Positions 10,988-40,157 of a stretch of 64,000 nucleotides of DNA are shown in pieces; within the stretch, counting starts at the first letter, position 1; each line of letters opens with the position of its first letter. The notes beneath the pieces were generated by a model that saw nothing but the letters and a program-made list of their open reading frames with translations, had not been told where the DNA came from and ran no database searches. Both the position numbers and the translations under genes were made by a program. This stretch comes from Escherichia coli (GTDB taxonomy: Bacteria > Pseudomonadota > Gammaproteobacteria > Enterobacterales > Enterobacteriaceae), in assembly GCA_002099625.1 (NCBI GenBank), contig GCA_002099625.1_4857.1. One strand, 5' to 3'.

Positions 10988-11011
10988 CCTCCACCCCCGA
11001 AGGGGTGGAGG
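10988..11011 (-). other. Intergenic GC hairpin with UUCG tetraloop (RNA), no U-tract
   Basis: cctccacccc-cgaa-ggggtggagg between the 547-aa gene stop and the terminase ribosome-binding site. Confidence 0.4.
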
Positions 11012-11019
11012 AAGGTTTG

Positions 11020-12663
11020 TTACTCGATGTGGTGCGCCAGCATTGGCGTAGCCGCGAGGTTAAGCGTATCCGTAGGAGTGCGACGAATCCAGCGAATAAC
11101 TAACGAATCGTCCAGAGCGATACGATAATCTACCGTTTGCTCATTTAACCACTCATCGATGCTGTGGGTGTAAACCTTACCACCGACATGCACCTCAAAG
11201 TGTGTAGGCTCGGGAGCCTCAGATTCATTACGACGATCGTAGAGTGGATAAATCGGCTCGTACAGCGCTTTAAGCCACTCGGCTTTAGAGGCACAACCAC
11301 AACGAAGGTTCAGCGTGGAGTAGTTGACGTTAGAGTATTTGAACTCCGCCCAAATTTCATTACCGTAGACCAGCCCATCAGGCAGGTACTCGATAAGGAA
11401 GTTGGTATTCAACTCGTTACCTGGGTTCACTAACGTGATGGCGAAAGACTGCGCCTGGATGAATGCGCGGAATTGTGGATTTACTTTGCTGATATCCACC
11501 TGCACATTCAGACGCTGTTTCACACCCATCAACAGTGGGTCGAATGTAGTCCCTGTGGTGTACTGGATGTTTGCGGTCGCGTCGTAGACTTGGCCGCGTG
11601 TCAGGTTGTACAGCAGGAACGACAGACGATAACCACGGTTCGCATCCAACCAACGCGGAACCACAAACAGCTTCATGGAATAAGCACCATCGACTGTTTC
11701 GGTTACAGCGGTGTAGTCTTTGACAATTGTGTCTTTAACAATGTCAGTACCACCGTAGGTTTCACCACGGGCCAACTGATAGCTTAACTGGCAAGGTAGC
11801 TCATTACCGGCGTTTGACGCAATGTAGAACGTGTCGTGAGCACCAGAGTTACGCAGACCGTTAAATTTCACACGCGAACCATCGATAGGCAGGCGTTTGG
11901 TTCCGTCGCTGTACTGGATGTCGCACCACAACGGAATAGATTCCAGTGGGATGTTAATCGGCAGTGTCAGCGTAGTACCATTGTCGTCTACCAGGAACGG
12001 CGAAACCAGTTTAATGCCCAGCACAGTACGAGACGGTGTCTCTTGCGCCATCACCAGGTTGGTCTTGATGATGTGGCCGTGGGCGATCTGAACAACGTTA
12101 CCGACGTCAGAGTAAACCAGGAAAGTACACTCTTCACCGTTACTGACTTCGGCCAGACAGCTGCCAGGAATCGCTTGTTTCACCACAGTTTCTGCGTCAG
12201 CTGCACTGATGGTCTGCACCGGCAGATAGTTCTTTTTCAGAACCCCGTCTTTGTAATACCCAGACAGGATTTCTGCAGCATCGTTTACAGATGAGCCACG
12301 CAGGATACGCACACCATCGATATCAGGACCGTTGAAAGTGACGGCATCATCGATAACCATCGTCGGTGGAAGTTTGGTGCTGTCCACGTAGACGCGATAT
12401 TTGTCAGAGCGTAATGGGTAGTGGCCATTAAGACGCCCGTCTTGGTTTGCCACACCAACGCCGCCGAACGGTTCTGTTTCCCACGACGGTACCGAATAGT
12501 TCACGCTAACCACACGGTCAAAGCCGGAGGTCATGTCGTTCACGATGAGGTCGCGTGGGTTAGGTACGTAACCTGTTGGTTTGTTTGGTTCGTACAATTC
12601 ACTCGGGTCCCAGACTTCGAACCCGCGATCCTTGTCGATTAATTTGGACGCAATCTTCGCCAT
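11020..12663 (-). CDS. Hypothetical protein, possibly virion structural (547 aa)
   Basis: Long ORF tightly coupled to the upstream gene (stop 12666, start 12663). Confidence 0.6.
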   Translation of the reverse strand: MAKIASKLIDKDRGFEVWDPSELYEPNKPTGYVPNPRDLIVNDMTSGFDRVVSVNYSVPSWETEPFGGVGVANQDGRLNGHYPLRSDKYRVYVDSTKLPPTMVIDDAVTFNGPDIDGVRILRGSSVNDAAEILSGYYKDGVLKKNYLPVQTISAADAETVVKQAIPGSCLAEVSNGEECTFLVYSDVGNVVQIAHGHIIKTNLVMAQETPSRTVLGIKLVSPFLVDDNGTTLTLPINIPLESIPLWCDIQYSDGTKRLPIDGSRVKFNGLRNSGAHDTFYIASNAGNELPCQLSYQLARGETYGGTDIVKDTIVKDYTAVTETVDGAYSMKLFVVPRWLDANRGYRLSFLLYNLTRGQVYDATANIQYTTGTTFDPLLMGVKQRLNVQVDISKVNPQFRAFIQAQSFAITLVNPGNELNTNFLIEYLPDGLVYGNEIWAEFKYSNVNYSTLNLRCGCASKAEWLKALYEPIYPLYDRRNESEAPEPTHFEVHVGGKVYTHSIDEWLNEQTVDYRIALDDSLVIRWIRRTPTDTLNLAATPMLAHHIE

Positions 12664-12665
12664 GA

Positions 12666-15179
12666 TTAACCCTTGATTATCAGATACTGATTAAGCTGCA
12701 CTTCGCCATTCAGATAACGTTCATTGACGCGGTCTAAGAAGGCAAAGCCAAGTTCGTTGATTTCTACCGTTTCGTACTTCACATGCGGATGCAGTTTCAC
12801 AAACGCTTTATCGTAACCGATATAAGCCGGGTCAAACGGCAGGAGGTCTTTATAACGCTCCATGATGTTATCCAGCTGCGACGTCGAAATACGATACTCT
12901 GGATCGTCTTCCCGTAGAATCAGAATACCTTGTAAGTAGTCCCACAAGATTTTGTTCAGGGTTGGCGAGTAGAGATGATACAGATACGGCAACGGTACCG
13001 GGTTAACCGGCGGTGGTGTTGGGAACCAGTTAGACAAATAAGCCTCAACGCGTGTGTCCAAATCGCGGGCAGTGTCGCGCAACTTGTAAGTATCGCCGCT
13101 TACCAACGTCCGTAACGGAATAGTCGGATCGTCGACTGAGTACGGGAACCCGTCTTGTACGATATCGACACCTACAGTGTTGTCTTCACGGAACACGACT
13201 TCGTCACGCAGTAACAGTGAACCACCACCCACAACGCGAATTACTTTGTCATCACGACAATCAAACTGATTGTTGTTAGACAGCAGTCCGCTTGACACGA
13301 AACCGTGTTTAGGAATACGGAGTTCACCGGTCACACCACGACAACGCACTGAGATTTTGTTGGTATCCCCGTCCGCCATCCAAGCTTTGCACACCACCAC
13401 GATTTCCGGCCAGCGGGTATGATAGTCAATCCCATGAACCAGCGGGTGGTTGTTCAACCACACTTCGACCGTTTCCATTGGTAACCACAGCGTGCGCTGC
13501 TGCCCGTCTTGGTTGCGTGCTACAATCGGAATACGTATCTGACCTTCCGATACTTTAACCTCCACTTCGAAGAACAAATGGAGGTCGTCGTAAATCACGG
13601 TCGGGTGACGTCGTGTCCGATCTACGGTCCAGGTGATTTTGTTTCCGTCGCGTGTGTAATCCGTTCCTTCCTCGGCTTTGTAGTAATCGTTGGTCGGAAC
13701 TTCCCCGATGACCATTCGAATCCACAGTCCAACGTTCGAACCTGGCTCAATTTCAAAGTCGGGAGCGTTGTCAACAATCTTCACCGCATCTGAGACTTCA
13801 CCTGCAATTGCCTCAATGATTCGTGCTTCCGGATTGCGAGGGATGTAAACATCGTAGCCTGCATTACGGTGATGCTCTAACAGCAACCCATCGGCATCGT
13901 ATTCGTATACAGTCGACAATGTTGCCAGTAGGTCAGGCAAAATACCACGATAACCGCCAGAGGTAAGTTCCAGACGCTGCGGTGTGTCGGCGCTGTAACG
14001 TGCAGCAGCGTTGTAGCCGTACGCATCAGTGCAAAGATCGCGCGTGATGTTCCGGAGTTTGGCCGCCGCTAACCGATTCGCTGCCGATTCTTCGAGCGCT
14101 GCTGCGGTCCACTCTGGTACGTTGGAGTTTGCCCCCACCATCGCACCGATGATTTGCTCGTCGCTAAGACGATAGAGATCATGCGTGTGGGTGGAATTAT
14201 ACAGCGGCTTCAGGTCAAGGAAATCGTCGCGTATCAATAAACGAATCGTTAGTTCGTCGATATCATTCATCGGGGTGTTGAACGCGGTGCGGTACTTCGA
14301 AATCCGCATCGAAGGAATCGATAGATCGTTCCACGTCAATTGTCGTACGGCCAGATGGCGGTGGCGATGGTAGTAACGTCCCTCGCCTTTCCACAACAAC
14401 TGAATTTCACAATCGCTGTTGAAAATCCAAATGCCATCCCCTTTTGGAATGTGCAGCAGGTATTTTCGTGTTTGGTCAAGCGTTGAGTAGAACGTTTGCA
14501 AATCCCCACAACGGTATTCAATCACACGACGAATACGCCCATCGACACGGATTTCAACATCGTCCCACGCTTTGATATCCGCGGGCTTAGGATCAGCAAT
14601 CATCTTTCCGTTTACCCAGAAATCGACATAGCCGATTTTCTGGCCTTTCAACAGATTATAACGGTCTAAGACGATCTGGATCTGTTGTGGGTTCGGCGGA
14701 TTATACGGTTCGATGAACGTCGGTTTAACAACAGGAGCGTTTTCGCCGCCATCATTACCAGCATAAATGCGCAGATAACACGGCGTGTCGTCTAACCACT
14801 TGTAGCGTTCCGTTTGCGGAATCGCCATGTAAATCTGACCAGAGAGTGTCCGCCAGAAATACACAGAGTTCGACGGGATAATTGTCCCATCTTCGTTGTA
14901 CACCTGCATCCACGCATGGAAGTTATTTACACACGTAGTAAGTTTCTTCCAGCGCTCAGGAGGGATACTCAAGTTGCCGTAGTTGAGGTGGAGCTTGTCA
15001 ATTACAAACGCGTGCCACCACCCCTCGCCCGGTAAAGGAATCGGATTACGCCCGTGCTTGAAAAACCCGATCGCTCCGGTCTTTTCAGTTAATCGAAAAG
15101 GCGCAATGTTCAACACCCCATCGAGGTACGGACGCTGCCACGCATTTTTAACGGCGTGAGCGACCAGCCAGTTCTCCAT
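12666..15179 (-). CDS. Hypothetical large protein, possibly virion structural (837 aa)
   Basis: Long ORF; AAGAGG ribosome-binding site before ATG at 15179. Confidence 0.65.
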   Translation of the reverse strand: MENWLVAHAVKNAWQRPYLDGVLNIAPFRLTEKTGAIGFFKHGRNPIPLPGEGWWHAFVIDKLHLNYGNLSIPPERWKKLTTCVNNFHAWMQVYNEDGTIIPSNSVYFWRTLSGQIYMAIPQTERYKWLDDTPCYLRIYAGNDGGENAPVVKPTFIEPYNPPNPQQIQIVLDRYNLLKGQKIGYVDFWVNGKMIADPKPADIKAWDDVEIRVDGRIRRVIEYRCGDLQTFYSTLDQTRKYLLHIPKGDGIWIFNSDCEIQLLWKGEGRYYHRHRHLAVRQLTWNDLSIPSMRISKYRTAFNTPMNDIDELTIRLLIRDDFLDLKPLYNSTHTHDLYRLSDEQIIGAMVGANSNVPEWTAAALEESAANRLAAAKLRNITRDLCTDAYGYNAAARYSADTPQRLELTSGGYRGILPDLLATLSTVYEYDADGLLLEHHRNAGYDVYIPRNPEARIIEAIAGEVSDAVKIVDNAPDFEIEPGSNVGLWIRMVIGEVPTNDYYKAEEGTDYTRDGNKITWTVDRTRRHPTVIYDDLHLFFEVEVKVSEGQIRIPIVARNQDGQQRTLWLPMETVEVWLNNHPLVHGIDYHTRWPEIVVVCKAWMADGDTNKISVRCRGVTGELRIPKHGFVSSGLLSNNNQFDCRDDKVIRVVGGGSLLLRDEVVFREDNTVGVDIVQDGFPYSVDDPTIPLRTLVSGDTYKLRDTARDLDTRVEAYLSNWFPTPPPVNPVPLPYLYHLYSPTLNKILWDYLQGILILREDDPEYRISTSQLDNIMERYKDLLPFDPAYIGYDKAFVKLHPHVKYETVEINELGFAFLDRVNERYLNGEVQLNQYLIIKG

Positions 15180-15189
15180 AGTGGGCCTC

Positions 15190-16095: not shown

Positions 16096-16152
16096 GAGTA
16101 TGATCCTTAGTATGACCATCAGGTCTTTAAGACGAATATATGGAGACGTTCC

Positions 16153-18198: not shown

Positions 18199-18201
18199 TA
18201 G

Positions 18202-19077: not shown

Positions 19078-19094
19078 GACAAAAAAACAAGCGT

Positions 19095-19133
19095 TACCTC
19101 TCTCCATTTGGAGAGAGGTACGTTTTATTTTTT
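19095..19133. terminator. Bidirectional rho-independent terminator
   Basis: Hairpin tacctctctcca-ttt-ggagagaggta followed by T-run 19123-19133 on plus; A-run 19081-19087 serves the convergent minus-strand gene. Confidence 0.6.
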
Positions 19134-19667: not shown

Positions 19668-19722
19668 TGTAGCTCCAAAATCAAAAAAAAATAGGGCAGT
19701 CATAAGACCACCCCATTGTTTA

Positions 19723-20414: not shown

Positions 20415-20440
20415 CTTAATATTCCTTAAGGTCAGTGTGA

Positions 20441-21112: not shown

Positions 21113-21129
21113 GTAAATATTCCTTACGA

Positions 21130-21143
21130 TAATGGTCGATTAA
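21130..21143 (-). promoter_or_regulatory. Leader motif TTAATCGACCATTA, copy 1 (18 nt upstream of the HD gene start)
   Basis: Minus-strand leader ttaatcgaccattatcgtaaggaatatttac-ATG nearly identical to the leader at 22009-22022. Confidence 0.4.
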
Positions 21144-21146
21144 CTA

Positions 21147-23722: not shown

Positions 23723-23726
23723 TTTT

Positions 23727-24530: not shown

Positions 24531-24592
24531 TGGTTTCCCCAGTTGTTATTACCGAAGCGGGTTATTGGGGACGTACAATAACCCTACCTCAG

Positions 24593-25330: not shown

Positions 25331-26806
25331 TTAAACTTTGCTCGGTACAGAAATAACCACACCGCCACAAATCCAATCCAGGACGTAGTTAATCATCCAG
25401 TCGGTCGCCACCTCGTCAGGCTGACGGTTAGCAATCATACCACGATGAATATCCAGCATCAGCTTGGACAGTTCGTATTCACCGAAGACCTCAGTCGCGG
25501 AGACCTTGATAACGAACTCAGTGATGTCTGTGGTGTCGGTTGTGAAGAACGAATCGATGAAGCTTGCCGTTGATTTCTTAACGAACTCCGGCGTTGCTAC
25601 CTGACCGTCCTGTCCACGCCAGAACAGTTCAGGATCGGTCGCATCGATAGCCACGTTAAACGCTTGTTTCAGTGACTGGCGATTGCGTGTTACCCAACTG
25701 CTGTCGAGCTTAGCACGCTGAATCGCAGAACGGTGGCCCCAGGCAGCGATGTAGTCTTTCTGTTTTTCCAACAGTGAAGCTACACGCGTGGAGACATTGG
25801 TGTCACCTTCGTCCAGCTGGTAGATAGCGCCCAGTAACGCTTCAACGCTACCACCTTTTTCCAGATAGTCGTCCATCACTTCCTGACAGATATACACTTT
25901 CTTCTCAACGTTGTCGTATCCGAAGACAATGTTACCGGTCTTGATGCGGGTAACGATGTTCTGGGTGTAGGCGTAAACCCAACCGATATAGCTGTAATGC
26001 AATGGCAGCATCTGTGCTTTCCACTGCCCGCTATTCAGACCAGAGTCTTTCCACGGCATTTCCAGGTAGTAGCCAGAAAGCAGCATAAACAGAATGTTGC
26101 GTTTCAGGTTGTGTGGTGCCTGGTCGCTTACCGGAGAGAGCATGTTCCCTTCGAGCATGTTGCGAACGGCTTCGTTGATATTCCAACCCAGCGCATTCAA
26201 CAGTTCTTTAACCAGATCGTCGTAAGCTTTGCTGCCGGTTTCTGGCAGTTCGATATCGGCAGGGACGTTGGCTTTAACTGCAGGGTGCGTAGTACCATTG
26301 CCCAGCGGGTTTTCTACCGAATCAATTAATGCCTGTACCACCGGGGAGTTCAACGCCGGGTCCATACCTGCAGGCACAAGTGCCCATTCTTCGCTAACTG
26401 CCTGGTTTTCAATACCCTGGTTGTTTTGGATAACCAGTTGAACAAACGGCTGAATAACGTTACGGGCAAAGTCAAGCATACCCTGACAACGTTGGATAGC
26501 CATACGTTTCAGTTCGAACAGTGTCGGTTCGTGGTCTTCGACGTTCAGCGTTTCTGGACCCGCTGCAGTATCTGCGATTACAGACGCTTCGCCTGTACCG
26601 GCCTGCGGCGTTTTCAGTGCAGTGATATCCGGCAGAGACTGGAAGAACTCCTCGTCAGTTATCTGTGTATCGAAAACGCTCTGCTGCGTAGTCGCTTTTG
26701 TCAGTAGACCAACAGGACTGTCAACGTCAGCTTCCAAACGAACCCGGTGTTGTTTCGCCAGTTTCATTGCGTTGGTGACAGCATTAAGTGAATATAAGTT
26801 GATCAT
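25331..26806 (-). CDS. Hypothetical protein (491 aa)
   Basis: Long ORF; 4-nt overlap with the upstream 97-aa gene. Confidence 0.65.
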   Translation of the reverse strand: MINLYSLNAVTNAMKLAKQHRVRLEADVDSPVGLLTKATTQQSVFDTQITDEEFFQSLPDITALKTPQAGTGEASVIADTAAGPETLNVEDHEPTLFELKRMAIQRCQGMLDFARNVIQPFVQLVIQNNQGIENQAVSEEWALVPAGMDPALNSPVVQALIDSVENPLGNGTTHPAVKANVPADIELPETGSKAYDDLVKELLNALGWNINEAVRNMLEGNMLSPVSDQAPHNLKRNILFMLLSGYYLEMPWKDSGLNSGQWKAQMLPLHYSYIGWVYAYTQNIVTRIKTGNIVFGYDNVEKKVYICQEVMDDYLEKGGSVEALLGAIYQLDEGDTNVSTRVASLLEKQKDYIAAWGHRSAIQRAKLDSSWVTRNRQSLKQAFNVAIDATDPELFWRGQDGQVATPEFVKKSTASFIDSFFTTDTTDITEFVIKVSATEVFGEYELSKLMLDIHRGMIANRQPDEVATDWMINYVLDWICGGVVISVPSKV

Positions 26807-27096
26807 GCCTGACCCCCGTTTTTGGTGCTGATAGAATCCTGGATGCGACCAGTAATACGCGCACCCACCATATCAGCGATGTCTCGTTTCAGCAAACGCT
26901 GATCGCCCATGCGGTCAGACAGGCCATTGCTGCCCTTCAGCAGTCCGTGAATAATTTCGGTGGCCAATTCAACCGCATTGCCCAGAACAACAAAGTTCAT
27001 GCGTTGCTGTGGGGAATAACCTTCCGTTTCCGGATTCGTGCTATTACGGCCCACCGGAATCCCATGCTGCTGCTTGAGCGTATCTAAAATTCCCAT
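26803..27096 (-). CDS. Hypothetical protein (97 aa)
   Basis: ORF with GGAG ribosome-binding site; preceded by GC hairpin 27121-27139. Confidence 0.5.
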   Translation of the reverse strand: MGILDTLKQQHGIPVGRNSTNPETEGYSPQQRMNFVVLGNAVELATEIIHGLLKGSNGLSDRMGDQRLLKRDIADMVGARITGRIQDSISTKNGGQA

Positions 27097-27120
27097 TATT
27101 AACTCCGGAGTTTATTTACC

Positions 27121-27139
27121 GGGCGGGAGCGACCCGCCC
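27121..27139 (-). other. Intergenic GC hairpin (RNA), no U-tract
   Basis: gggcggg-agcga-cccgccc between the beta-like gene stop (27144) and the next start (27096). Confidence 0.4.
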
Positions 27140-27143
27140 TACA

Positions 27144-30100
27144 TTAGTTGATTTTAGCCGGCAAGGCTGGGACGTCTTCACCATCTAAGATGCGTCCGAT
27201 ATTCTCCCCACCACGATACCCGACAGCGTTGGTGGTTCCGATGCGCATGATAGAACCTACGATACGTGCGTCGACGGAATCACGACCAAAGATAATGTCG
27301 AGTTCCTGCCCGTCTTCCGTTTTGTTGGTTCCATACATCACTTCCTGAACCGTCGTTTTCAGCTGGTTAGCAATAACCATCTTATCCGCTGCTGCCATCT
27401 CTACCCGGTGTGTGATGTAGAATCGGACACACAGGCTATTGTACGCTAACGGCACCCCCTCAACACGAAAATCACCGTTGACTCGACCATCCTTCGGCTC
27501 GTCACGTTTGAGAGCCAGCGCAGTCTTCCGACGTATACGGTCGTATTTACGAACCATCTCCGCCAAAGACGGGGTCATATCTTCCACCTCGCCGTGGTAA
27601 ACCACTTCGATTTTGTCGATAAACCCACGAACACCAGAGCGTGGTGCAAAGGAGCTTAACTCACGCAGCGTTTCCGCTGCTTCTTTACTGAACCCGCTCA
27701 TATCGCCGGTCAGGTTGTCGGTGAAGGTGCATAGAATTGAATCCACGTCTACGTGGTCCCCTTCTTTTACCATCTCCAACAGGTTCTGGGTAAACGTCAT
27801 TGTGACTTCTTTGAGTTTGGTAACATCGGCTTCAGCCTTAGCAGCGAACCGCTCACTAATGGCGTTGGAGTCCTCAATTACTTCTTCCCCTTCAATCAAA
27901 GCGACAGTTGCCAGTATCCCGTTTTTAAAGCTGACTTGCGTTGGATCGTAGATGTCTGGTTCAAAGTGTTGTTCGTTGTACGTGATAACGGCACCGGCAG
28001 GGAGTTTATCTCCGCGCTTCCATTTCGTTACCAGGGTGTGTGGGTAGTAAGTCCCTTCGTGCGGACCGAACCAACGGCCCAGTGGGAAAGCTTCTTCCTC
28101 TCCGTCGTCGTATTTGATTTTAACGTGGTCGTTAAGAACCTCCACAATCTTGCCAGGTTTATCGATTACGCGTGCGTGCTTCACAGAAGTACGGTGTGCC
28201 ACGAACTTTTCTTGCTCGGTACGATACGGTGTGGTGGTTGCGCCAACACAACTGGTCGCAGAACCGAATTGAATCCCAACGAAGTTCTGACGCTTAGCAT
28301 CGTCCATCAGGGTATCCGGCACCAAGCCATCAATAAACGACAGTGCCTCACCTGGCTTCAGTTTATCGAGGTCCTTTTTAAAGGTCGTGCCGTCCACGGT
28401 GTCGTAACGCGGATTGTTTGTTGCAAAGGCGGTGATACCTACATCGCCGTTATCGACCGTGTTACCGGAGACAATCCCCAGGTCGCTCGGTTGGAATTCA
28501 CGGGTACTGTAGACCATGGTCTTGCGGTTACGACCACCTGTACCGCCCATGGTAACAACATCTTTTTCTTTGATGTTCTGTACCGGGTTTGCGCCAGGAG
28601 CCAGCAGAACAGACGGGTCGGAGTTAATTGCACCCCACACCATGTCCTGCGTCAACTCAAACTTACGATTCGAGTTAGGCGCGTTGTTGTAGTTACGCAT
28701 CGCCCGCACCATCGCGGTGTAGATGTGATACGAAATACGTTGGTTCCCGATGAACATCATTTCGTCACCGTTAATTTCCGGTAACGTGTGGTCCGTCTGC
28801 AGCAGTTCGTTAGAACGCTCCAGTAAGCCGATAAAGGTTTCCGGCTCGCCCATTTTCCTGAGGATACGCGCGTGCATGTCGTCAACAAATGCGGTCCGCA
28901 TCAGTTTCAGCTCTTTGATGTAGCGTGGTGTTAGCCCATCTGCATCGCGTAACAGGTTCAGGTAAATGTCTTCCCGGTCAACTTCCGACTCGGTATACGT
29001 GGTAAAATGTTTAATGTAACGGTCTAAGCCGTTGACAATCATCCTCTGTTGATCGTTCTCGCAGACAATTGCAATTTTCGCATCCTGGAGACGAATAATG
29101 GAGTCGAACTGACTTTTATCGATACGTTGTCCGACAGAGAGAACCTCGTAACTGATACCAAAGTGTTTCAACATCCCGGTTAACCCGAGATAGTACGCAA
29201 ACACAAAGCCCAGCGAGATTGATTTGCCCATCAGTGACAGTTCGGTCATTTCACGTGGAGCCTTAGAGGTGTCCACGCCAAAGACTTCGGCGAGCGTACC
29301 CAGTGGTTCGGTCTTATCCTTATCCACTCGATAGAGCTGGGAGTTTTTATCCATACCGACGATGACATGACTCCGCGGTTTCTTCGCCACAGGTACCAGC
29401 TCGACACGGTCCGCGTCTGCCAGTTGCCCTTCGTTAAAGAATGCCGCTTTCTGTTTAATGTCAAAGTTCCATTGGTACCCAATTGCGTTGAACGCTGCTA
29501 CACGACGTGCCACCTCGGTGTACTGACGCGGCAGTTTAGACAGCGGATCGAACACATTCGCCAGTTTTGCATCAGTAATTTCGGTGTTCTTCGGATCGAC
29601 CGCGCGAGTAATAATCGCATTAGTGAGCCAACGTCCGTAATCATTGACGACTTTATCACTGCGACGGACAAAGTTCTTCCCGTAGGCAGTGGTTAACGCT
29701 ACGGTATCGTGGGACACTTTACGGATAGGAAGATCAACACGCTGACGACGCATTGTATATTCCACACCATTTGCAACCCAAGTACCGTCTTCGGTTAATG
29801 CAGGAATTGAAAAACGTACCGTGGTTGGTTCTCCGCCAATCGGCTGAATACGCAACGTGTGGTGTTCGATATTCCCGGTAACGGAAATCTCTTTCTCAAC
29901 AGTGTGATTGTGAATCGCCAAACCGAGACGCTGAGATGACGCTACTGCCCCCAGAATATCTTTCGGGAAGATTTCTTGGTTGTACTGACGAATGATTTGG
30001 TCGGTGGTATTTTCCGCCCAGGCTTCATCCGTAACTAAGCGTTCAATCTTCTTAGGCTCGGCTTTAACTTCGAGTTTCTTCGGATCGATGGTCAGACCTT

Positions 30101-31349
30101 CGCCGTACGTCTCTTTAGGATTGTACGGGTTGGGTAAGTTTACGAAACGTTTAGAAGATTCGTTCAGAAACTGATACGCTTTGGCGGTGACGCGGCCCGC
30201 TTCTGCCAGGCGCTCAACTTCCTGTTTAATCACAGCATCGTGTGGGATGGTGCGTTCTACGACGATGGTGGTTGGTTTGACATCTTCTTTCGGCGCTTCG
30301 ATGACCAGATCTTCTTTCTCATCGAACTCATGATCGTTCAATGTATCGTCAACGTTGTCGCTTTGTGTTGCTTCATCGTCGACGATATCGAGGCTTTCTT
30401 CCGGTTTACTGGCAACGGTTTCAACAGCATCGTCGTCCTCTCCCAGATGTACGCGTTCATCCCCTTCCGGTGTAACGAACTCGTCATCTTCGTAGTCGGT
30501 AGACGGCGGTGTGGTCATCACCGTAGTCAGTGTACGGTAGAACATTCTGCCCATCTGCACGTCAGTCAAACGACCACCGGCAGACTTACGCATTCTTTCA
30601 ATTACACCCATGTTCATGGATGTAAAACCACCGTTGTGTGTGAAGATAAAGTTCACACGAGACAGCTGGTTCATGTCCATACCGTCGAACAGGGTTGCTT
30701 GCTGATCGCCGTAAGCCCAACCGAACAGTTCCAGTAACCACAGCAGGTTAAAGTCTTTAAAGTGTTCCAGTTTGGTTTTAACACGATCGTTATACGTCAT
30801 TTTAAAACGATCAAAAGAAGGCAGTACGTTACCCAGTTCGATGATGTAGTAGTTCTGACGCATGTACTCACGTGAGTCAGTTTTCATCTGGTTAGTTATC
30901 AGCAGCTGAATGTTGTGCAGACGTTCGTACCAGGACATTAAAGTATCTGGGTAGAAATAATGCGGCAGCATCGGAGTGTAGTTTTCGATGAGCAGCACTT
31001 TCGGATCGGAACGTACCACGCCGTCTTCAATCATGCGACGAATACGACGGTTGTTACGATGGTACTGGAAGATTTGGCGCTCTTGACCAACAACCGGTTT
31101 CTTACGCGGGTGGCCAATAATGCCGTCTTCAGGCAGCTGGAAGTGGTGACGAATCATCGCCGGTTTTTCCAGCTGACCAAAACATGGTGTGGTTAACGGT
31201 GGTGCTAAAACCACCTGGTCTAAATCGATGGTGTGGTAGATAGAACCACGTGGGAGCTGGAGCTTCTCCAGCGGGATAATACGCGGACGACCGAACTCAT
31301 CGGTCTTGCGCACGGTAAAGCGCTGGTTAAACTGTTTCAGAAAAATCAT
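27144..31349 (-). CDS. Multisubunit RNA polymerase beta-like subunit (1401 aa)
   Basis: C-terminal region IEGEEVIEDSNAISERF resembles the bacterial beta-subunit active-site segment (NFEDAIxxSE); lies directly downstream of the beta-prime-like gene; assignment from eye-matched motifs only. Confidence 0.5.
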   Translation of the reverse strand: MIFLKQFNQRFTVRKTDEFGRPRIIPLEKLQLPRGSIYHTIDLDQVVLAPPLTTPCFGQLEKPAMIRHHFQLPEDGIIGHPRKKPVVGQERQIFQYHRNNRRIRRMIEDGVVRSDPKVLLIENYTPMLPHYFYPDTLMSWYERLHNIQLLITNQMKTDSREYMRQNYYIIELGNVLPSFDRFKMTYNDRVKTKLEHFKDFNLLWLLELFGWAYGDQQATLFDGMDMNQLSRVNFIFTHNGGFTSMNMGVIERMRKSAGGRLTDVQMGRMFYRTLTTVMTTPPSTDYEDDEFVTPEGDERVHLGEDDDAVETVASKPEESLDIVDDEATQSDNVDDTLNDHEFDEKEDLVIEAPKEDVKPTTIVVERTIPHDAVIKQEVERLAEAGRVTAKAYQFLNESSKRFVNLPNPYNPKETYGEGLTIDPKKLEVKAEPKKIERLVTDEAWAENTTDQIIRQYNQEIFPKDILGAVASSQRLGLAIHNHTVEKEISVTGNIEHHTLRIQPIGGEPTTVRFSIPALTEDGTWVANGVEYTMRRQRVDLPIRKVSHDTVALTTAYGKNFVRRSDKVVNDYGRWLTNAIITRAVDPKNTEITDAKLANVFDPLSKLPRQYTEVARRVAAFNAIGYQWNFDIKQKAAFFNEGQLADADRVELVPVAKKPRSHVIVGMDKNSQLYRVDKDKTEPLGTLAEVFGVDTSKAPREMTELSLMGKSISLGFVFAYYLGLTGMLKHFGISYEVLSVGQRIDKSQFDSIIRLQDAKIAIVCENDQQRMIVNGLDRYIKHFTTYTESEVDREDIYLNLLRDADGLTPRYIKELKLMRTAFVDDMHARILRKMGEPETFIGLLERSNELLQTDHTLPEINGDEMMFIGNQRISYHIYTAMVRAMRNYNNAPNSNRKFELTQDMVWGAINSDPSVLLAPGANPVQNIKEKDVVTMGGTGGRNRKTMVYSTREFQPSDLGIVSGNTVDNGDVGITAFATNNPRYDTVDGTTFKKDLDKLKPGEALSFIDGLVPDTLMDDAKRQNFVGIQFGSATSCVGATTTPYRTEQEKFVAHRTSVKHARVIDKPGKIVEVLNDHVKIKYDDGEEEAFPLGRWFGPHEGTYYPHTLVTKWKRGDKLPAGAVITYNEQHFEPDIYDPTQVSFKNGILATVALIEGEEVIEDSNAISERFAAKAEADVTKLKEVTMTFTQNLLEMVKEGDHVDVDSILCTFTDNLTGDMSGFSKEAAETLRELSSFAPRSGVRGFIDKIEVVYHGEVEDMTPSLAEMVRKYDRIRRKTALALKRDEPKDGRVNGDFRVEGVPLAYNSLCVRFYITHRVEMAAADKMVIANQLKTTVQEVMYGTNKTEDGQELDIIFGRDSVDARIVGSIMRIGTTNAVGYRGGENIGRILDGEDVPALPAKIN

Positions 31350-31367
31350 ACATGTGCCTTATGGGTA

Positions 31368-32981: not shown

Positions 32982-33010
32982 TTTTAAGCTCCTGAATTGG
33001 AAGAAACATT

Positions 33011-36000
33011 ATGGCAAAAAGAGGCAAAGACGGTTTCGATGATATCGATTTAGATAGACTCGACGACTGGGATGATTTCGGTGAACCACCCCGTCCCAAA
33101 GACGAGAAAAAACGAAGCCCGATACTCAGTACCCTGAATGTTGCCAGGAAGTCGGCGTTGTCAACTATCTGGCCAGAAGGGAAACGCGACCAAGTTATCC
33201 TCAAGGGGATGCCTAAGCCGGCAGCTGATGCATACGAGGGCTATCAGTCAGCGGCAGCTGCAGCAAAGGACATTTACGCCCATACGAAAGGGGAGCTTGA
33301 GAAGACCGAGCGCACGCTGAAGATGCAAGCGCGTCAACTCGGTCCGACAATGAAGAAATACTTGCCGGATGCAGTTACTAAACGCTTCGACAAGTGGTCA
33401 AAATCTGACCAGTTAGATTACCAGAACTACGATCCGAATCAGGCATTGATGGATCGTGAACTGGGCGACGTATTCTCAGGTGTGCCAAAGGACGCCGATG
33501 AGCAACGTCAGCTGCAGGATCGCATGGTAGAGGACAAGCTCCGTGACAGCATCAAAGAGATGCGCGCGGATGCAATGCACCAAACCATGATTGGGATGGC
33601 GAAAGATATTAACCTGTTAACCGGGTTAAGCCGTGGGGTATTCTTAAACATCGAGCGTAAGAAGCTCGAATTGCAATACCGCACCCTGTTCGCCATTCAA
33701 GACATCGTGAAGATGAAGCAGTCGGAGTTCGATCGTAACACGCCTGCTTTAGAAGCCATCGTGAAGAACACGGCACTGCCGGATTACGCGAAGGAAGATT
33801 TCTCAGAAGTCCGTTGGGCGAACGTTAAACGCCAGGCTGCGGAATGGATGAACCCGTTGCGTTATGCTGACGGGTTTATGGACATGATTCGCGAAAATAC
33901 CAAGAAGAAAATTTCTGGTATATTTGGCGAAGGTCGTGGTTTGTTAGAGTCCGTTCTCGGCATGGGTGTTGAAGACGATTTCGGCATGAGCGATAGCTCT
34001 TCGTTGACTGCCGAACGTCGCAAAACAAATGCTCGCGATAAAGCAACTGCATGGGGTAGCGGATTCCTTGCGAAGAAACTACTCGGCCCACAAATCGAGA
34101 AACTCCAGAAATGGACTCGTGAGGAGATGGAGAAAAATCCAGAGGTCATGAAACGCCTGCAGAAGGGCGCGTTCACCTTTGGTAATCTTTCCTCTATCTC
34201 GAACTCAGCTATCGCAGGCGAAACGCAAGGACCGTTGGCGGATTTGTTCCGGGTATTGAATGAACTCGGTATTGTCCAACCGTTAAACCGCGAGAAAGCT
34301 TTTCTTGATGAGCGTAATGGCGAAACGTTAAGCCGTTCGGCGAAGTTTGACCGCAAAGCGTATCTTAGCATAGTTGAAGTTATTCCTGCCTGGCTGGCAG
34401 AGATTAACAAATCTGTTCGTCGTGGCTATGGCGAACATGCCGACCTGGAATATGACATCACCAGCCGTGGTTTCGTAGACCGCAAAGTGGTCGGTAATCG
34501 TGTACGAAAAGCGGTTGCAAATGATGAGCAGCGTCTGCGTCTTCAGAATTCCATTAATAGCACTGTGGATTTTGTTGACCGCGGCAAAACACTCTCGCAG
34601 AAGGATCGTCAGCATCTTGCCGACTATATTGAGTCGCGTGCCTCGCAGGGCCGTGCATTCGACGTAGAAGCAATTTTGAAAGACCCGATGCATCTTCATC
34701 GGTATATGCCAGGAAACTCTGCAGAACGCATTAAGGAAGCGTTACAGGGGCATTCTGATAGCCTGGTCGGTGGTAGCAACGAATTAAGTAACGAACTGGC
34801 TCGCAAAATCTCCACAGTGCAGTCATCTATCACCCAACGTCAGGCAATTATCGACGAGGCGGTGAATATTTACGGCGAGCGAGCGTTGCGTGATGCGGGT
34901 ATCTTTAACTACGACGCGAAGAGTGACACCTTCGGCGTGGATAAAGACCTGTCCGATCCCTATACCTTGTTTAATGACTTGGCGATGGGTAAGACACGCA
35001 GCGGGCGTGCATTGACTCGTGACCAGGAGATTCAACGTAAGCTGCAAAATGGTTCGGCGTTAGGCGACTATCTGCGCCGAATGAACCAAGGGGCAAGTGG
35101 TGGTGCCGATGACACGTCGTTACCGCCGGCTTTACGTGGCGGTGGTAAAGGCCGCGGAATGTCGCCTCGGCAGCTAGCCGCGGTTCTCTACGGTGAAACC
35201 TCGACTAACTTTGTTGAATTGTTGAGTCAACGTAACCGTGGCGAAGAAGCGCCACGGAATAACTTTGACGGTATCATCGAAGCGATTCGGGGTAACAACA
35301 ACAGTGACACCCTCCAGAAAATTCTGGAACACGTCAGAAGCATGGACGAAGAAGGGGTTCTCCTGGCTTCGTTAGCAGGGGGTGCTGGTTCTGGCGATGA
35401 AGAAATGGGCCCGCCTCGCCCTGGCGGTGGTAGCGGTGGCGGTAAACGCCGTCGTATTATCATCGGTGAGGATGGGCTTATTCGTCGTTGGGGTGGTGTG
35501 TTGTTCGACACCGCAACAGGAATCGGCGGCTTTGCAAAACGTGGTGTTAAGGGTGCCTGGAATAAACTGAACCAGTTCGGTGGCTGGGCACGCGGTAAAG
35601 TCGCAGGAATGGGTGGCGGAGAAGGTCCTGGTTTCTTAACCCGGATGCGTGGCCTTATTAGTGGTAGTGTCCGTGGGGGCTTTGAAGCAGTAAGCTCTTT
35701 CGGTAAAGGACTACTGGGTATCCGCGACATTTACGATGACCACGGTAATGTTGTTCTGCAGGGCGCACGCCTGGAAGCTGGGGAATACTACCAGGTTATT
35801 GATGGTAAGATGGTTCAGTTGAAAACACTGGACGACATCAAGCTGGGGAGCGACATTGTTGACTCCGCAGGTAATCTGGTATTAGCGGCCGCTGACTTAG
35901 CCGCTGCGGGTAAACTCCGCTACTATAAAGGCGGGAAAATCCAAGCACTGACCCAAGGTCTGGCCAGTAAGATTGGTTTAGGCTTTAATAAGGTGGCTAA

Positions 36001-39000
36001 GCTACCGAAAAGGTTCCTGGATTTCCTGTCACCAAAAGCGGGCAGCATCGTTGGTAAGATTAAGGACTGGCTGAACGAGATTCCGGAAGGCGAAGAAAAG
36101 ACACGTCTCCAGAAAGCGTTCAACCGTGTAACGAGCTTACCGGGTAAAGTGCTCGGTTTTGCGAAACGTGGTGTCGATCGTCTGAAAGACATGATTACCG
36201 ACAACCCACTGACGCGTTGGTGGAAAGGCCGTAAAGATGGTGGGGGTGGTGGTTTCAGTCTCTTCTCATCAACCGGCAAGAAAACCAACCACATCCTTAT
36301 CCGTATCTATAAACTGTTGAACCAACGTTTACCGGGAGATCCGGAAGACGAAAGTTGGACAGAGGAAATGGAGAAGGGCGTCGGGGGTGGCGGTAGTACG
36401 ATCGGTCGTGCAGTACGCGGGGCGTATGATCGTGCGAAAGCGTCATTGTCTGAACGTTTTGGTGGACGTTGGTCAAGAACAAAAGCGTTCTTTGGTCGTG
36501 GACGTGACCGCCTGCGTGGTTGGTTCAGTGGTTTCCGAGGCCGGGCTGGGGATATGCTCGATGGATATCGTGGAGCACGACACGACATTGCTACACGTTA
36601 CGAAGTTGAACGTCGGTTGGCTGGACGCGATGACGATGTTGCTGAGTTTTATCGCAGCCATTTGAACGCGAAAGGTGGCCTTTCTGGCCGTAAAGTCTAC
36701 GGCGATGCGAAGGAAGACCTTGAGACCGCACGTGATGCAGCAGGGAGGGTTATTAACAAAGGGAAGAATGCTGCCAAGTCTGCAGGTGCAAGGTTATTCG
36801 AACGCTTGGACCGAATGATTGGCTTGCAAGAGATGTCGTGGTTTAACACCATGCGCGAATCAGTATCCCGTGCAGGTGGTGACGATGGCATTATTCGCAC
36901 CATGTTTGCGAAGTTCGGTAAACGTAACAAGCCGCCTGAAGGTGATGAAAAACGCGACTACTTTAACTTCTTCAAACGTTGGCGTGAGAAACGTAAGGAG
37001 AAGAAAGAGAAAGCGCAGGGCTCCAAAGGGAAATCTGGCGGTCTGTGGGATATGGTGAAAGGCTTACCTATCATCGGCCCCATCGTCAGTATCTTGGGAA
37101 CTGTGGGTAATATACTCGGTTCTATCACGAAATGGGGGGTGTTAAAACCCGTAGGTCTTTTAGGTAAGGCTGCGTGGAACGTTGGTAAGTTCGCAGTAAC
37201 CCGTTTGGCGGCACCCGCGGTGTCCGCTGTGGCAACTGCGGCATCTGCCGTCGTGACAGCAGTGGGCTGGCCGGCAATTCTTATCGGTGGCGCGATCGCT
37301 GCGGCAGGTTACGCCGCGTACAAGATCGCAACGACTACCTATACCCAGTACCTGGATAAGATGCGTTTAGCTCAGTACGGTTTCCGTGATTACGATAAGT
37401 GGTCGTCGGACGACGGGGCGAAGGCGCGTTACTTAGAAGACGCATTGCGTGAGTATGTGTCTTACGCGGAAGATGGCCAAGCCAGTCTCCGCGGACTAAG
37501 TGGAAAAGACGTTCAGAAGTTAGCTGAAGGGTTCGGTATCAACGTTGAGGAAAAAGGCGAGATGTTGGCCTTCCAAGCGTTTATGCTTCAGCGCTTCATT
37601 CCGATTTATCTCCGCTGGATTACGGCACTGAAATCGATGCCGAACAGTATCCAGTTGGCTGACGTCGGCGATGCGAAGAAAGTATCGAAAGAGGACATGC
37701 AGACACTCTTCAACAAAATGAAGATGACTAAGGATGCAAAAGCGTTCTCTTCGTTAACTGACCCACGCAAAGTCAACCAAGGTTTCTTCTCGAAAGCTTG
37801 GGACGTTGTAACCTTTACACCGAAGGAGTTTTTGAGCGGTGAAGAGGTTATGGAAGTGCAGAATGAAGTTGAGCGTGCAATCAAGTTCAGAATGGACGAT
37901 AAGAAAGCACGTAAGTACGGAATGGCACCGGCTGTAGAGGGGATTAAGTCCGCGGGCGTTGATGAAGCTATCAACAAACTTGGACAGTTGGATAACGAAC
38001 GTAATAAAAATCTGGCGAAGGTAGAGGGTTGGGAAGACGGAACAGAGCAGGTTCAGATTCAGGTAGACTGGAATGCGGTGCTCGACCAGAAAGACATGAA
38101 TGCGATGGAGTCGGTACGTTGGAAGACTTATGGTTTTACCACCATCGACAACGCCACACGCACGTTGATTACGGTATTCGAGAAAAACGTCATCAAAGAC
38201 ATTGACGTGAAAACCGCAAGCTACAAAGGTGATTGGAAGAAAGCAATCGCCTCAATGGTTCCAGACGCTATCGGCACACCGAAAGAAGATCGTTTGAAGC
38301 GGTGGTTCTTTGACCGTTTCTTACCGGTATTCATGACGTACTTGGTTGGGGTGAAACGCTACCTGCCAACAGCTGATCCGCTGAACTTGAAACTGACCGG
38401 CGGTTACCTGTACGAAATCAGTTTGATGATGTCAACAGCTTATAGCTTGAAGGGCGGTATAAGACAGTCGGTGTGGGAAGTGAATATCAACCCATTAGGG
38501 GGCGATGCTAACACTAATCCGTCGTCTATCAAAGCCGAGCTGGAAACGCTGAAGCTGTTATCAAAAGAAGCTGACCTTGCCGTGCGTAACATGATTAAAG
38601 CCATTAAAAATAATGGCAAGCGTGCACGCTGGAAGGATCGTAACAAGAACCGCAGTTCTCTGGAAGTCACCGGTGAAGATGAAGAAGACTCGAACATCAG
38701 TTCGGGAGATTCTTTGTCATCTGACGGTGCTCGCGCCTCAGGCTACATTCCATCGGGCACGAGTGGCGGTGTGCCGGGTAACTTAGGTCAAGTCGTCGAT
38801 GCGGTTGGTGGTGTGCGGAACTACGCTGCAATGACCACTGGTTCGTCGTCGATTAACCTGAGTGATGTGAAAGACGGTGATTATAAGTCACTGGCTGAAA
38901 AATACCCGATAGAAATGTTGGGTAGAAAGGGTGCGTTGAACGTTCCGAATATCAAAGCATTGATTACCGATGCAGCGAACATGATGGGCGTGCCACCTGC

Positions 39001-40132
39001 AGTGGCGTTAGCAATGGCTAAGGCGGAGTCCGGATTTAACTACACCGCTAAAAACCCGTATGCTTCGGCGTCTGGGTTGTTCCAGTTTGTTAACGGCACG
39101 TGGGACGGGATGATGAAGGGGTATTCGCGGAAGTTTGGTATTCCGCGTGTTAACCAAATGGACCCGTGGGCGAATGCTATACTGGGTGTACAGTTCATTC
39201 GTGACAACATCCAACAAGCACAACGTGACCTGGGTGGTAAAGCACCACCTCCAGCCGTGGCTTATCTGTACCACTTCCTAGGTGCAGGCGGCGGTAAGAA
39301 ATTCCTGGAAGCGTGGAAGCGTAATCCGAATATGGCGGCATCGAGTGCTCCTGGGATTACATCCGCAATATTGAGAGGGAATGCCAACGTCTTCTACAGC
39401 AACGGTCGTATACGTAGCGTAGATGGGGTTATTCAGGAACTGAACCGCCGCATGGGTGCAATTTCCGCCAACGAAGTCGCTGCCGATCCGAGCAAGACGA
39501 AGGATATGGTTGCAGGATTGTCGCCTAATTCACCAACCAACCCGGCAGCGGCAATGGGTGCACCGGCCGCTAATGACCCGAGTCTGTCGCCAGCAGATAA
39601 CCTGCCAGCAGATAATGCTAATCGTCGTGATGACGCATTGACGCAGAAAGGGGCCATGGCGGCACAAGATGCAATGGCTACCGCCGCAGGTAATGTAGGA
39701 CCAGCAGCACCTACACCAACCACAGGCGGTACCGGAACATCCGATGCCTCAACAACGGCCGAAACCGTAGCGTCGCAAGCTGCAGCAGAAGGATTGTCTG
39801 CGACGGATGTTGCTAAAGTGAAAGCAGGCGCGGAAGCGCAGGTTAACGCAGCAGCTCGTCCAGTTGCCGCTCCAACTTCTGATGCTACAGCATCGACGCC
39901 AACGCTGAATGGTGACCCGATAGATGTTCAGCAGCTCAAGGTACTGATTCAGTCTCGCGATTACTTGAAAGAGATTCGTGATATTTTGAAATCAAATCCA
40001 AGAGCGGCAAACGACACACGGGGTGGTAGTATCCAGCAAGCGGCAAATGTGCCTCCTCCTGGCTCAGCTGCACGTAGGCAGGAAATAACCCAACCGACAC
40101 CGTCGTTAAACGTAAGTCGGAAAGCAAGCTAA
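33011..40132 (+). CDS. Giant virion protein (2373 aa) with TM segments and a lytic transglycosylase domain
   Basis: Lytic transglycosylase motif AKAESGFNYTAKNPYASASGLFQFVNGTW (about nt 39000-39130); hydrophobic cluster around nt 37060-37340; Gly/Arg-rich repeats; Ala/Pro/Thr-rich C-terminus; architecture like phiKZ gp181 or T7 gp16. Confidence 0.8.
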   Translation: MAKRGKDGFDDIDLDRLDDWDDFGEPPRPKDEKKRSPILSTLNVARKSALSTIWPEGKRDQVILKGMPKPAADAYEGYQSAAAAAKDIYAHTKGELEKTERTLKMQARQLGPTMKKYLPDAVTKRFDKWSKSDQLDYQNYDPNQALMDRELGDVFSGVPKDADEQRQLQDRMVEDKLRDSIKEMRADAMHQTMIGMAKDINLLTGLSRGVFLNIERKKLELQYRTLFAIQDIVKMKQSEFDRNTPALEAIVKNTALPDYAKEDFSEVRWANVKRQAAEWMNPLRYADGFMDMIRENTKKKISGIFGEGRGLLESVLGMGVEDDFGMSDSSSLTAERRKTNARDKATAWGSGFLAKKLLGPQIEKLQKWTREEMEKNPEVMKRLQKGAFTFGNLSSISNSAIAGETQGPLADLFRVLNELGIVQPLNREKAFLDERNGETLSRSAKFDRKAYLSIVEVIPAWLAEINKSVRRGYGEHADLEYDITSRGFVDRKVVGNRVRKAVANDEQRLRLQNSINSTVDFVDRGKTLSQKDRQHLADYIESRASQGRAFDVEAILKDPMHLHRYMPGNSAERIKEALQGHSDSLVGGSNELSNELARKISTVQSSITQRQAIIDEAVNIYGERALRDAGIFNYDAKSDTFGVDKDLSDPYTLFNDLAMGKTRSGRALTRDQEIQRKLQNGSALGDYLRRMNQGASGGADDTSLPPALRGGGKGRGMSPRQLAAVLYGETSTNFVELLSQRNRGEEAPRNNFDGIIEAIRGNNNSDTLQKILEHVRSMDEEGVLLASLAGGAGSGDEEMGPPRPGGGSGGGKRRRIIIGEDGLIRRWGGVLFDTATGIGGFAKRGVKGAWNKLNQFGGWARGKVAGMGGGEGPGFLTRMRGLISGSVRGGFEAVSSFGKGLLGIRDIYDDHGNVVLQGARLEAGEYYQVIDGKMVQLKTLDDIKLGSDIVDSAGNLVLAAADLAAAGKLRYYKGGKIQALTQGLASKIGLGFNKVAKLPKRFLDFLSPKAGSIVGKIKDWLNEIPEGEEKTRLQKAFNRVTSLPGKVLGFAKRGVDRLKDMITDNPLTRWWKGRKDGGGGGFSLFSSTGKKTNHILIRIYKLLNQRLPGDPEDESWTEEMEKGVGGGGSTIGRAVRGAYDRAKASLSERFGGRWSRTKAFFGRGRDRLRGWFSGFRGRAGDMLDGYRGARHDIATRYEVERRLAGRDDDVAEFYRSHLNAKGGLSGRKVYGDAKEDLETARDAAGRVINKGKNAAKSAGARLFERLDRMIGLQEMSWFNTMRESVSRAGGDDGIIRTMFAKFGKRNKPPEGDEKRDYFNFFKRWREKRKEKKEKAQGSKGKSGGLWDMVKGLPIIGPIVSILGTVGNILGSITKWGVLKPVGLLGKAAWNVGKFAVTRLAAPAVSAVATAASAVVTAVGWPAILIGGAIAAAGYAAYKIATTTYTQYLDKMRLAQYGFRDYDKWSSDDGAKARYLEDALREYVSYAEDGQASLRGLSGKDVQKLAEGFGINVEEKGEMLAFQAFMLQRFIPIYLRWITALKSMPNSIQLADVGDAKKVSKEDMQTLFNKMKMTKDAKAFSSLTDPRKVNQGFFSKAWDVVTFTPKEFLSGEEVMEVQNEVERAIKFRMDDKKARKYGMAPAVEGIKSAGVDEAINKLGQLDNERNKNLAKVEGWEDGTEQVQIQVDWNAVLDQKDMNAMESVRWKTYGFTTIDNATRTLITVFEKNVIKDIDVKTASYKGDWKKAIASMVPDAIGTPKEDRLKRWFFDRFLPVFMTYLVGVKRYLPTADPLNLKLTGGYLYEISLMMSTAYSLKGGIRQSVWEVNINPLGGDANTNPSSIKAELETLKLLSKEADLAVRNMIKAIKNNGKRARWKDRNKNRSSLEVTGEDEEDSNISSGDSLSSDGARASGYIPSGTSGGVPGNLGQVVDAVGGVRNYAAMTTGSSSINLSDVKDGDYKSLAEKYPIEMLGRKGALNVPNIKALITDAANMMGVPPAVALAMAKAESGFNYTAKNPYASASGLFQFVNGTWDGMMKGYSRKFGIPRVNQMDPWANAILGVQFIRDNIQQAQRDLGGKAPPPAVAYLYHFLGAGGGKKFLEAWKRNPNMAASSAPGITSAILRGNANVFYSNGRIRSVDGVIQELNRRMGAISANEVAADPSKTKDMVAGLSPNSPTNPAAAMGAPAANDPSLSPADNLPADNANRRDDALTQKGAMAAQDAMATAAGNVGPAAPTPTTGGTGTSDASTTAETVASQAAAEGLSATDVAKVKAGAEAQVNAAARPVAAPTSDATASTPTLNGDPIDVQQLKVLIQSRDYLKEIRDILKSNPRAANDTRGGSIQQAANVPPPGSAARRQEITQPTPSLNVSRKAS

Positions 40133-40135
40133 TCG

Positions 40136-40157
40136 TAGGGGGTGGCAACACCCCCTA
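40136..40157 (+). other. GC hairpin with GCAA tetraloop right after the giant gene stop, no U-tract
   Basis: tagggggtg-gcaa-cacccccta, 9-bp stem. Confidence 0.4.

Follow-up and report, generated by a model that had tools for sequence, protein, structure and literature searches.

Hairpins without a U tract between the cistrons of one operon, and leaky terminators, are already well known. Stabilising intercistronic hairpins are found in the Rhodobacter puf operon and, as a repetitive extragenic palindromic (REP) element, in malE-malF of Escherichia coli. RNase III sites in the early region of phage T7 are helices of about 20 bp or more with internal loops, and RNase III substrates need about two helical turns. 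Here, we describe three hairpins (HP1, HP2 and HP3) which lie between co-directional genes in a stretch of 64,000 nt from contig GCA_002099625.1_4857.1 of the E. coli assembly GCA_002099625.1, in the following called the window. By its sequence, the window belongs to a SPN3US-like jumbo phage of the genus Seoulvirus, related to phiKZ. Identity over the 8 kb from 26000 to 34000 is 97-99% with SPN3US-like jumbo phages from Salmonella and E. coli, compared with about 80% with SPAsTU and the Erwinia phage pEa_SNUABM_29, and the gene order of the window is that of the SPN3US-like phages, being also common to more distant Erwinia relatives.

As a relative of phiKZ, Seoulvirus encodes a virion and a non-virion multisubunit RNA polymerase (RNAP). 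Nucleus-forming jumbo phages use these two unusual enzymes to transcribe their genomes. Non-canonical 3' ends have been reported for phiKZ-type phages; the canonical intrinsic model fits only 52 of the 132 mapped transcript 3' ends of 201phi2-1. For phiKZ, the terminator motif BCCYCCCCHWWDGGGRRGGBYTTATKYYGT was obtained from mapped 3' ends (Putzeys et al., 2024, PMC10914365). Upstream of gp182 in phiKZ, and of its homologue in 201phi2-1, a short RNA arising by premature termination has been mapped (PMC11512511). A literature search for the SPN3US group found no description of elements of the HP1 to HP3 type.

Sequence, stability and position of the hairpins

The hairpins were located by reading of the sequence and by an exhaustive stem-loop census of the window, and the assignments of the surrounding genes were taken from the SPN3US RefSeq annotation. 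A previous sequence-only reading had proposed hairpins with UUCG, GCAA or short loops between co-directional genes at these sites. All three were confirmed and all three loop types were found, with the correction that the UUCG loop of HP1 reads on the minus strand. HP1 (10988..11011, minus strand) consists of a 10-bp stem, CCUCCACCCC-UUCG-GGGGUGGAGG, with a stability of -21.6 kcal/mol. It starts 8 nt past the stop codon of the gene for a 547-aa virion structural protein (11020..12663, minus strand) and precedes the terminase large subunit gene (8864..10975, minus strand), of which the Shine-Dalgarno (SD) sequence and start codon occupy 10973..10984 (GGAG at 10984-10981, ATG at 10975-10973). 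HP2 (27121..27139, minus strand) has a 7-bp stem closed by a pentaloop, GGGCGGG-UCGCU-CCCGCCC (-14.9 kcal/mol), and is found between the gene for a 1401-aa virion RNAP beta-like protein (27144..31349, minus strand) and a 97-aa open reading frame (ORF; 26803..27096, minus strand). Between HP2 and the ATG of this ORF (27096-27094) lies a palindromic SD box, AACUCCGGAGUU (27101..27112, minus strand), which may form a 4-bp mini-hairpin. HP3 (40136..40157, plus strand) has the 9-bp stem UAGGGGGUG-GCAA-CACCCCCUA (-17.3 kcal/mol) and separates a 2373-aa gene annotated as 'tail fiber' (33011..40132, plus strand) from the gene of a 740-aa protein (GTG at 40181). These two genes are the counterparts of phiKZ gp181 and gp182. 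The segment 40158..40183 (plus strand) behind HP3 contains the weakened U-rich tract AAUCAUCUUACAG, the SD sequence GAGG (40171-40174) and the GTG start codon. A Pfam search of the proteins from neighbouring genes gave no matches and hence no functional clue.

All three hairpins stand in the sense orientation of their genes within spacers of 44-48 nt, starting 3-8 nt past the stop codon and finishing 12-24 nt ahead of the next start codon. The distance from the end of the hairpin to the SD sequence amounts to 3 nt for HP1, 16 nt for HP2 and 13 nt for HP3. With G+C-rich stems of 10, 7 and 9 bp and loops of 4, 5 and 4 nt, respectively, the hairpins have the format of a canonical terminator (stem of about 5-14 bp, loop of 3-8 nt), lacking the U-rich tract directly 3' of the stem. 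In the 10 nt after the stem, 4 (HP1), 2 (HP2) and 4 (HP3) T residues were counted, with no run longer than 2 (tails TATGGAGATTGT, GGTAAATAAACT and ATCATCTTACAG), versus 6-8 in the U-tailed hairpins, and the terminator scan called none of the three on the gene strand. The proposed absence of a following U run was correct as far as runs are concerned; the tail of HP3, AAUCAUCUUAC, is however a weakened U-rich tail and not an absent one. On the plus strand the scan flagged HP1 with the tail AAGGTTTGTT. An opposite-strand terminator was rejected, as no plus-strand gene ends there and the stable loops are sense-specific. Also rejected was a late promoter of the phiKZ type, whose start site reads TATG: the TATG found behind HP1 in the window is replaced by CATG or TGAG in the relatives.

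In local ensemble folds the stems of HP1 to HP3 were paired with a probability near 1. Hairpins as stable as these are 6-25 times more frequent in the window than in shuffled sequence, which is more than expected by chance. Using dinucleotide shuffles as reference, 24 hairpins of -14.9 kcal/mol or below were found versus 4 +/- 2.2 expected, 15 versus 1.1 at -17.3 kcal/mol or below, and 4 versus 0.15 at -21 kcal/mol or below. The census also listed hairpins of about -15 kcal/mol inside coding sequence, at 35236-35257 in the 2373-aa gene and at 13557-13586 in an 837-aa structural gene, and one near the start of a 504-aa ORF (63467-63489). A weaker U-less hairpin of 9 bp and -10.6 kcal/mol (24559-24584, minus strand) occupies the junction preceding the head maturation protease gene; it is not conserved in Machina- and Wellingtonvirus, where that junction measures only 8-12 nt.

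Conservation and kinship with phage terminators

Syntenic regions of 36-48 kb from twelve relatives were collected and the three junctions aligned, yielding a comparison of 13 phages from five genera (Seoul-, Erskine-, Machina-, Wellington- and Derbicusvirus). A hairpin of -13 to -24.5 kcal/mol was present at 39 of 39 orthologous junctions, each of HP1 to HP3 thus occurring in 13/13 phages, and the longest uninterrupted stems measured 7-12 bp throughout. In the gap-free hairpin alignments 94-99% of the cells were paired, and 4-5 pairs per hairpin showed changes on both sides. The covariation score was reached by none of 500 column shuffles and by no slid register, which holds for HP1, HP2 and HP3 alike. 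For HP1, double changes were found in 5 of 10 pairs (8 distinct sequences, four genera), with the stem CCUCCACCCC appearing in relatives as CCUCCUCUCC, CUCCUCCCC or GUACCCCCGGCC, while Derbicusvirus carries at the same position an unrelated, equally stable stem, GGUCUAGGGG, with a GNRA loop. The lower stem of HP2 covaries in 5 of 9 pairs (variants GGGC, GGGU, CAGAC, UUGGC, CCCACC and CCUGCC). In HP3, where 4 of 8 pairs show double changes, the upper pairs exchange among U-A, A-U, C-G and G-C and the G5/C5 core is kept. Read in sense orientation, the loop is UUCG or GNRA in 11/13 phages for HP1 and GNRA in 13/13 for HP3, and these extra-stable loops occur in sense orientation only. The sole non-Watson-Crick combinations among the core pairs are three G.U wobbles, and no A.C pair was seen; the wobbles point to the sense strand, because the opposite strand would carry A.C mismatches. 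Therefore, conserved structure with compensatory changes, sense-only loops and G.U wobbles together identify HP1 to HP3, on comparative grounds, as sense-strand RNA structures under selection. The flanking intergenic bases diverge freely among the relatives.

HP2 shows conservation of a second kind. Its loop with the three closing pairs, GGGUCGCUCCC, is invariant in the 13 phages except for one base in pSal-SNUABM-04, and the core of the SD box downstream, AACU(N0-1)CCGGAGU, is invariant across all 13 phages and five genera. For the 97-aa protein next to these motifs, identity is no more than 45-60%. One-base insertions in the SD box fall within the loop of the possible mini-hairpin in the fold. 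Such invariance of loop and SD box suggests sequence-specific recognition beyond hairpin stability. With 0 mismatches allowed, the window has a single copy each of the loop motif and the SD box; near-matches are at chance level, and an IMG/VR scan requiring both gave one match per contig; a repeated motif or regulon was rejected on this basis. A complement to the HP2 loop (AGCGA) was sought within about 400 nt and none was found. Searching Rfam around HP2 with E-values up to 10 gave nothing meaningful, and a known RNA family was rejected for all three hairpins, none of which had an Rfam match. Homologues of the 97-aa ORF in IMG/VR came from the already known genera only.

The hairpins resemble the intrinsic terminators of the phage family. 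HP1, CCTCCACCCC-TTCG-GGGGTGGAGG, fits the hairpin half of the phiKZ motif (CCYCCCC - 4 nt - GGGRRGG), HP2 and HP3 are G-first variants of the same G/C-tract design, and the tail of the motif (BY-TTAT-KYYGT) is missing from all three in the window. The likeness to phiKZ-type terminators (PMC10914365) extends to the C/U-rich 5' arm, the 4-nt loop, the G/A-rich 3' arm and the position just past stop codons, and the motif itself is found at the phiKZ orthologues of the HP1 and HP3 junctions. HP1 to HP3 differ from these terminators by the lack of a TTAT/U-rich tail, by their location inside operons and by lying directly ahead of the next SD sequence. The window's own terminators combine a pyrimidine-rich 5' arm, a tetraloop (several UUCG, one GCAA), a purine-rich 3' arm and a YTTTATTTT tail. 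Judged by sequence, HP1 to HP3 are of the same design as the intrinsic terminators of the family, minus the YTTTATTTT tail.

The sequence-only reading had set the hairpins against eight canonical terminators. This count was too low, with at least 11 strong U-tailed hairpins in the window, and the contrast held for the tail and not for the location, since four U-tailed hairpins likewise occupy short co-directional junctions. These four (19690-19717, 44375-44398, 49431-49456 and 55846-55867, minus strand) lie in junctions of 45-64 nt, directly ahead of the next SD sequence; therefore, this phage must commonly rely on read-through or on upstream promoters. The one at 19690..19717 (12 bp followed by UUUUUUUGAUUU) is the first strong U-tailed hairpin downstream of HP2. 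The one at 44375..44398 stands directly ahead of the mazG SD sequence, its long T-run and hairpin being kept in 8 genomes of 3 genera. Canonical terminators close the operons of HP1 and HP3. The HP1 operon ends at 8567..8594 (minus strand) with a 12-bp stem and AUUUUAUUUU, the tail of which is conserved in Seoul-, Machina- and Wellingtonvirus (kept as TTTATTTT in the three genera), and the HP3 operon ends at the bidirectional terminator 42994..43019, for which the arrangement of A-run, hairpin and T-run is kept in all 13 phages.

The tails of the orthologous hairpins are more variable. Among the 13 phages no HP1 orthologue has a T-run. For HP2, Machinavirus (TTTTCT) and Derbicusvirus (TTATCT) have T-rich tails, and the tails of Seoul- and Erskinevirus are A-rich. 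The HP3 tail is T-rich in Erskine-, Wellington- and Machinavirus and weakened in Seoulvirus (AATCATCTTAC); TTTTCTTT (Erskinevirus) or ATTTCTTT stands at this place in Erskine- and Wellingtonvirus. As RNA, the sister genera have UUUUCUUU, CUUCUUU or AUUUCUUU here. Since T-runs were kept at operon ends and at one co-directional site in the same genomes, and no HP1 orthologue has one, the absence of the tail is a stable state and not decay.

More distant phages carry related elements at the same junctions. In one phiKZ-type phage, the 55-nt spacer of gp181 and gp182, which is orthologous to the HP3 junction, holds a canonical terminator, and the short RNA mapped upstream of gp182 probably ends at this terminator. 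In the phiKZ-type phage 6B (L015 263-287), a canonical terminator with a UUUAU tail follows the structural gene preceding the terminase, with a spacer of about 100 nt behind it. In Goslar (L018 337-363) a U-less hairpin of 13 bp directly adjoins the terminase SD sequence, and Ea35-70 (L017 344-377) has a 15-bp hairpin at the structural-protein/terminase junction. A stable hairpin at this junction thus recurs in very distant nucleus-forming phages. HP3 shares its gp181-like/gp182-like junction, directly upstream of a gene still needing expression, with the 5' untranslated region (UTR) terminators of phiKZ and 201phi2-1 and their short RNA upstream of gp182/gp277 (PMC11512511, PMC10914365). It differs from them in that the phiKZ-type phages have a full U-rich tail and that the Seoulvirus element is known here from sequence alone.

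Possible functions of the hairpins

HP1 to HP3 are internal to operons; from the flanking genes up to the next canonical terminator there is no U-tailed hairpin. Only 12-24 nt separate hairpin and start codon, and therefore no space is left for a separate promoter. As a consequence, the transcripts of the terminase gene, the 97-aa ORF and the gp182-like gene contain the hairpin, and an efficient stop at this place is impossible. The explanation which we tentatively prefer, without holding it for established, is that of leaky intercistronic hairpins of the terminator type, which would attenuate transcription and/or protect upstream 3' ends. Situated inside late operons whose true ends bear canonical terminators, they would be leaky by design. 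One element would exist as a graded series, a U-rich tail giving termination and a missing tail letting most polymerases pass, so that the U content of the tail may serve as an evolutionary dial between 'stop' and 'pass'. HP1 to HP3 would then cause low-level pausing or termination by the phage RNAP, and a 3' end at or near them would be shielded from 3'-to-5' exonucleases. With either effect, the upstream cistron would exceed the downstream one in abundance.

Two of the functions offered by the sequence-only reading, mRNA stabilisation and weak termination or pausing, agree with the kinship of HP1 to HP3 with the phage's own terminators, as seen in stems and loops, in the tails of the sister genera and in the phiKZ orthologue of the HP3 junction. 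Like known intercistronic stabilisers, the three are stable hairpins of conserved structure between cistrons of one transcript. They share with the puf and malE-malF hairpins the U-tract-less stem-loop between two cistrons of one operon and the position 3' of the product expected in higher amount, HP1 having structural proteins before and the terminase after it. They differ from them as single, short, perfect stems which are not repeated in the REP manner and are evolutionarily tied to terminators. If their function is ordinary attenuation or 3'-end protection, this would offer a useful annotation and an engineering aid for SPN3US-like phages and no new principle. As selected siblings of the family's terminators that differ mainly in the U-rich tail, the hairpins provide a natural allelic series for the contribution of the tail to termination. 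They also help to address expression ratios in long late operons, such as structural proteins versus terminase or virion RNAP subunits versus the genes downstream.

We are aware of several points which weigh against this explanation. Cellular multisubunit polymerases terminate poorly at a hairpin that lacks a U tract. Our literature search found neither transcript-end or abundance data for the SPN3US phage group nor a biochemical study of termination by these phage polymerases. T-rich or A-rich sequence ahead of an SD sequence also boosts translation, so that the tails of the sister genera are ambiguous as terminator remnants. HP1 to HP3 lie within the ribosome footprint of the upstream stop codon and the downstream SD sequence, a geometry which a translational role fits equally well. 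Finally, a purely thermodynamic role would not require the invariant HP2 loop and SD box, which point to something sequence-specific.

Translation has to be considered first among the alternatives, and we regard it as possible, if rather less probable. The hairpin would keep upstream coding RNA and terminating ribosomes away from the ribosome-binding site downstream, or would bind a translational repressor or activator, and HP2 with its SD box would act as sequence-specific operator of the 97-aa ORF and of the head-assembly genes that follow. The short gaps between hairpins and SD sequences are in favour of this, as is the position of the HP1 hairpin 3-7 nt ahead of the terminase SD sequence in 12/13 related phages, next to its abutting position in Goslar. 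A translational role explains the additional constraints on HP2 best, considering the near invariance of GGGUCGCUCCC and SD box in five genera beside such a divergent protein, the placement of the SD-box insertions in the loop of the possible mini-hairpin and the single copy per genome. For HP1 and HP3, however, freely covarying stems with generic stable loops indicate stability and not recognition. Moreover, U-tailed hairpins of the same type lie directly ahead of SD sequences at four junctions, making closeness to the SD sequence a general result of genome compaction, and no candidate binding protein is known, the neighbouring proteins having no Pfam matches.

A more far-reaching idea, which we consider speculative and rather unlikely, is that HP2, defined by the GGG-UCGCU-CCC top and the AACU(N)CCGGAGU SD box in single copy per genome across five genera, is a sequence-specific regulatory RNA module, which would be read by a phage protein, polymerase or ribosome and would control the genes after the virion RNAP genes. 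More broadly, the non-canonical RNAP of nucleus-forming phages may respond to hairpins alone, U-less hairpins then forming a distinct class of graded pause or termination signals. If true, such signals would act where transcription is physically uncoupled from translation.

RNA processing is an unlikely explanation. It would involve a host or phage RNase E-type cut in single-stranded A/U-rich RNA beside the hairpin, which would then cap the 5' end of the downstream mRNA or the 3' end of the upstream mRNA. Tetraloop hairpins of very high stability are known as classical barriers to exonucleases and as 5' stabilisers (ompA, puf, REP), and A/U-rich unpaired flanks are present before HP1 (UAACAAACCUU), after HP2 (GGUAAAUAAACU) and after HP3 (AAUCAUCUUAC). 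These flanks are poorly conserved, though, and the proposal overlaps with the protection half of the leaky-hairpin explanation, differing only in the origin of the end. Its variant, RNase III cleavage in the stem, had like RNase E been suggested by the sequence-only reading and was rejected. Like the T7 sites, HP1 to HP3 are hairpins between co-directional phage genes without terminator function; in contrast to them they have perfect stems of 7-10 bp with tetra- or pentaloops. RNase III is improbable because the uninterrupted stems of 7-12 bp are too short, staying far below about two helical turns (a length criterion from general knowledge), and the local folds contained no extended helix.

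Efficient U-tract-independent termination specific to the phage multisubunit RNAP, with the downstream genes served by promoters hidden in the upstream coding sequence or by antitermination, appears quite improbable to us. In its favour, most mapped 3' ends of 201phi2-1 are not canonical intrinsic terminators, predicted 'factor-dependent' terminators of this phage were as effective as intrinsic ones in a reporter assay, and transcription often ends prematurely in 5' UTRs of phiKZ (PMC10914365). A promoter upstream of the hairpin would nevertheless still need read-through, 12 nt separate HP1 from the start of the essential terminase gene, and a U-rich tail is conserved wherever operons truly end, implying that the tail matters to the phage polymerase. 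It is hardly credible that the hairpins are chance palindromes or neutral relics of terminators and have no function today. HP3 and to a lesser degree HP2 do resemble terminators with drifted tails, but compensatory substitutions keep the stems across five genera while flanking bases diverge, and in Derbicusvirus HP1 is replaced in place by its unrelated stem.

The tRNA region of the window

Among the Rfam 15 covariance models run against the window, only tRNAs reached the gathering score. They form a cluster on the minus strand, with tRNA-Asn (1443-1518) and tRNA-Trp (3019-3094) identified by ARAGORN and two weaker tRNA-like Rfam matches at 1529-1600 and 1603-1672 (minus strand). Around the tRNAs, the region 1475-5456 contains non-coding gaps of unusual length, in which several U-tailed hairpins lie. 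The best sigma-70-like match of the window (TTTAAA-18-TATAAT, 10/12) lies at 4727-4756 on the minus strand, in AT-rich non-coding sequence near the tRNAs, and may mark a candidate early-promoter region.

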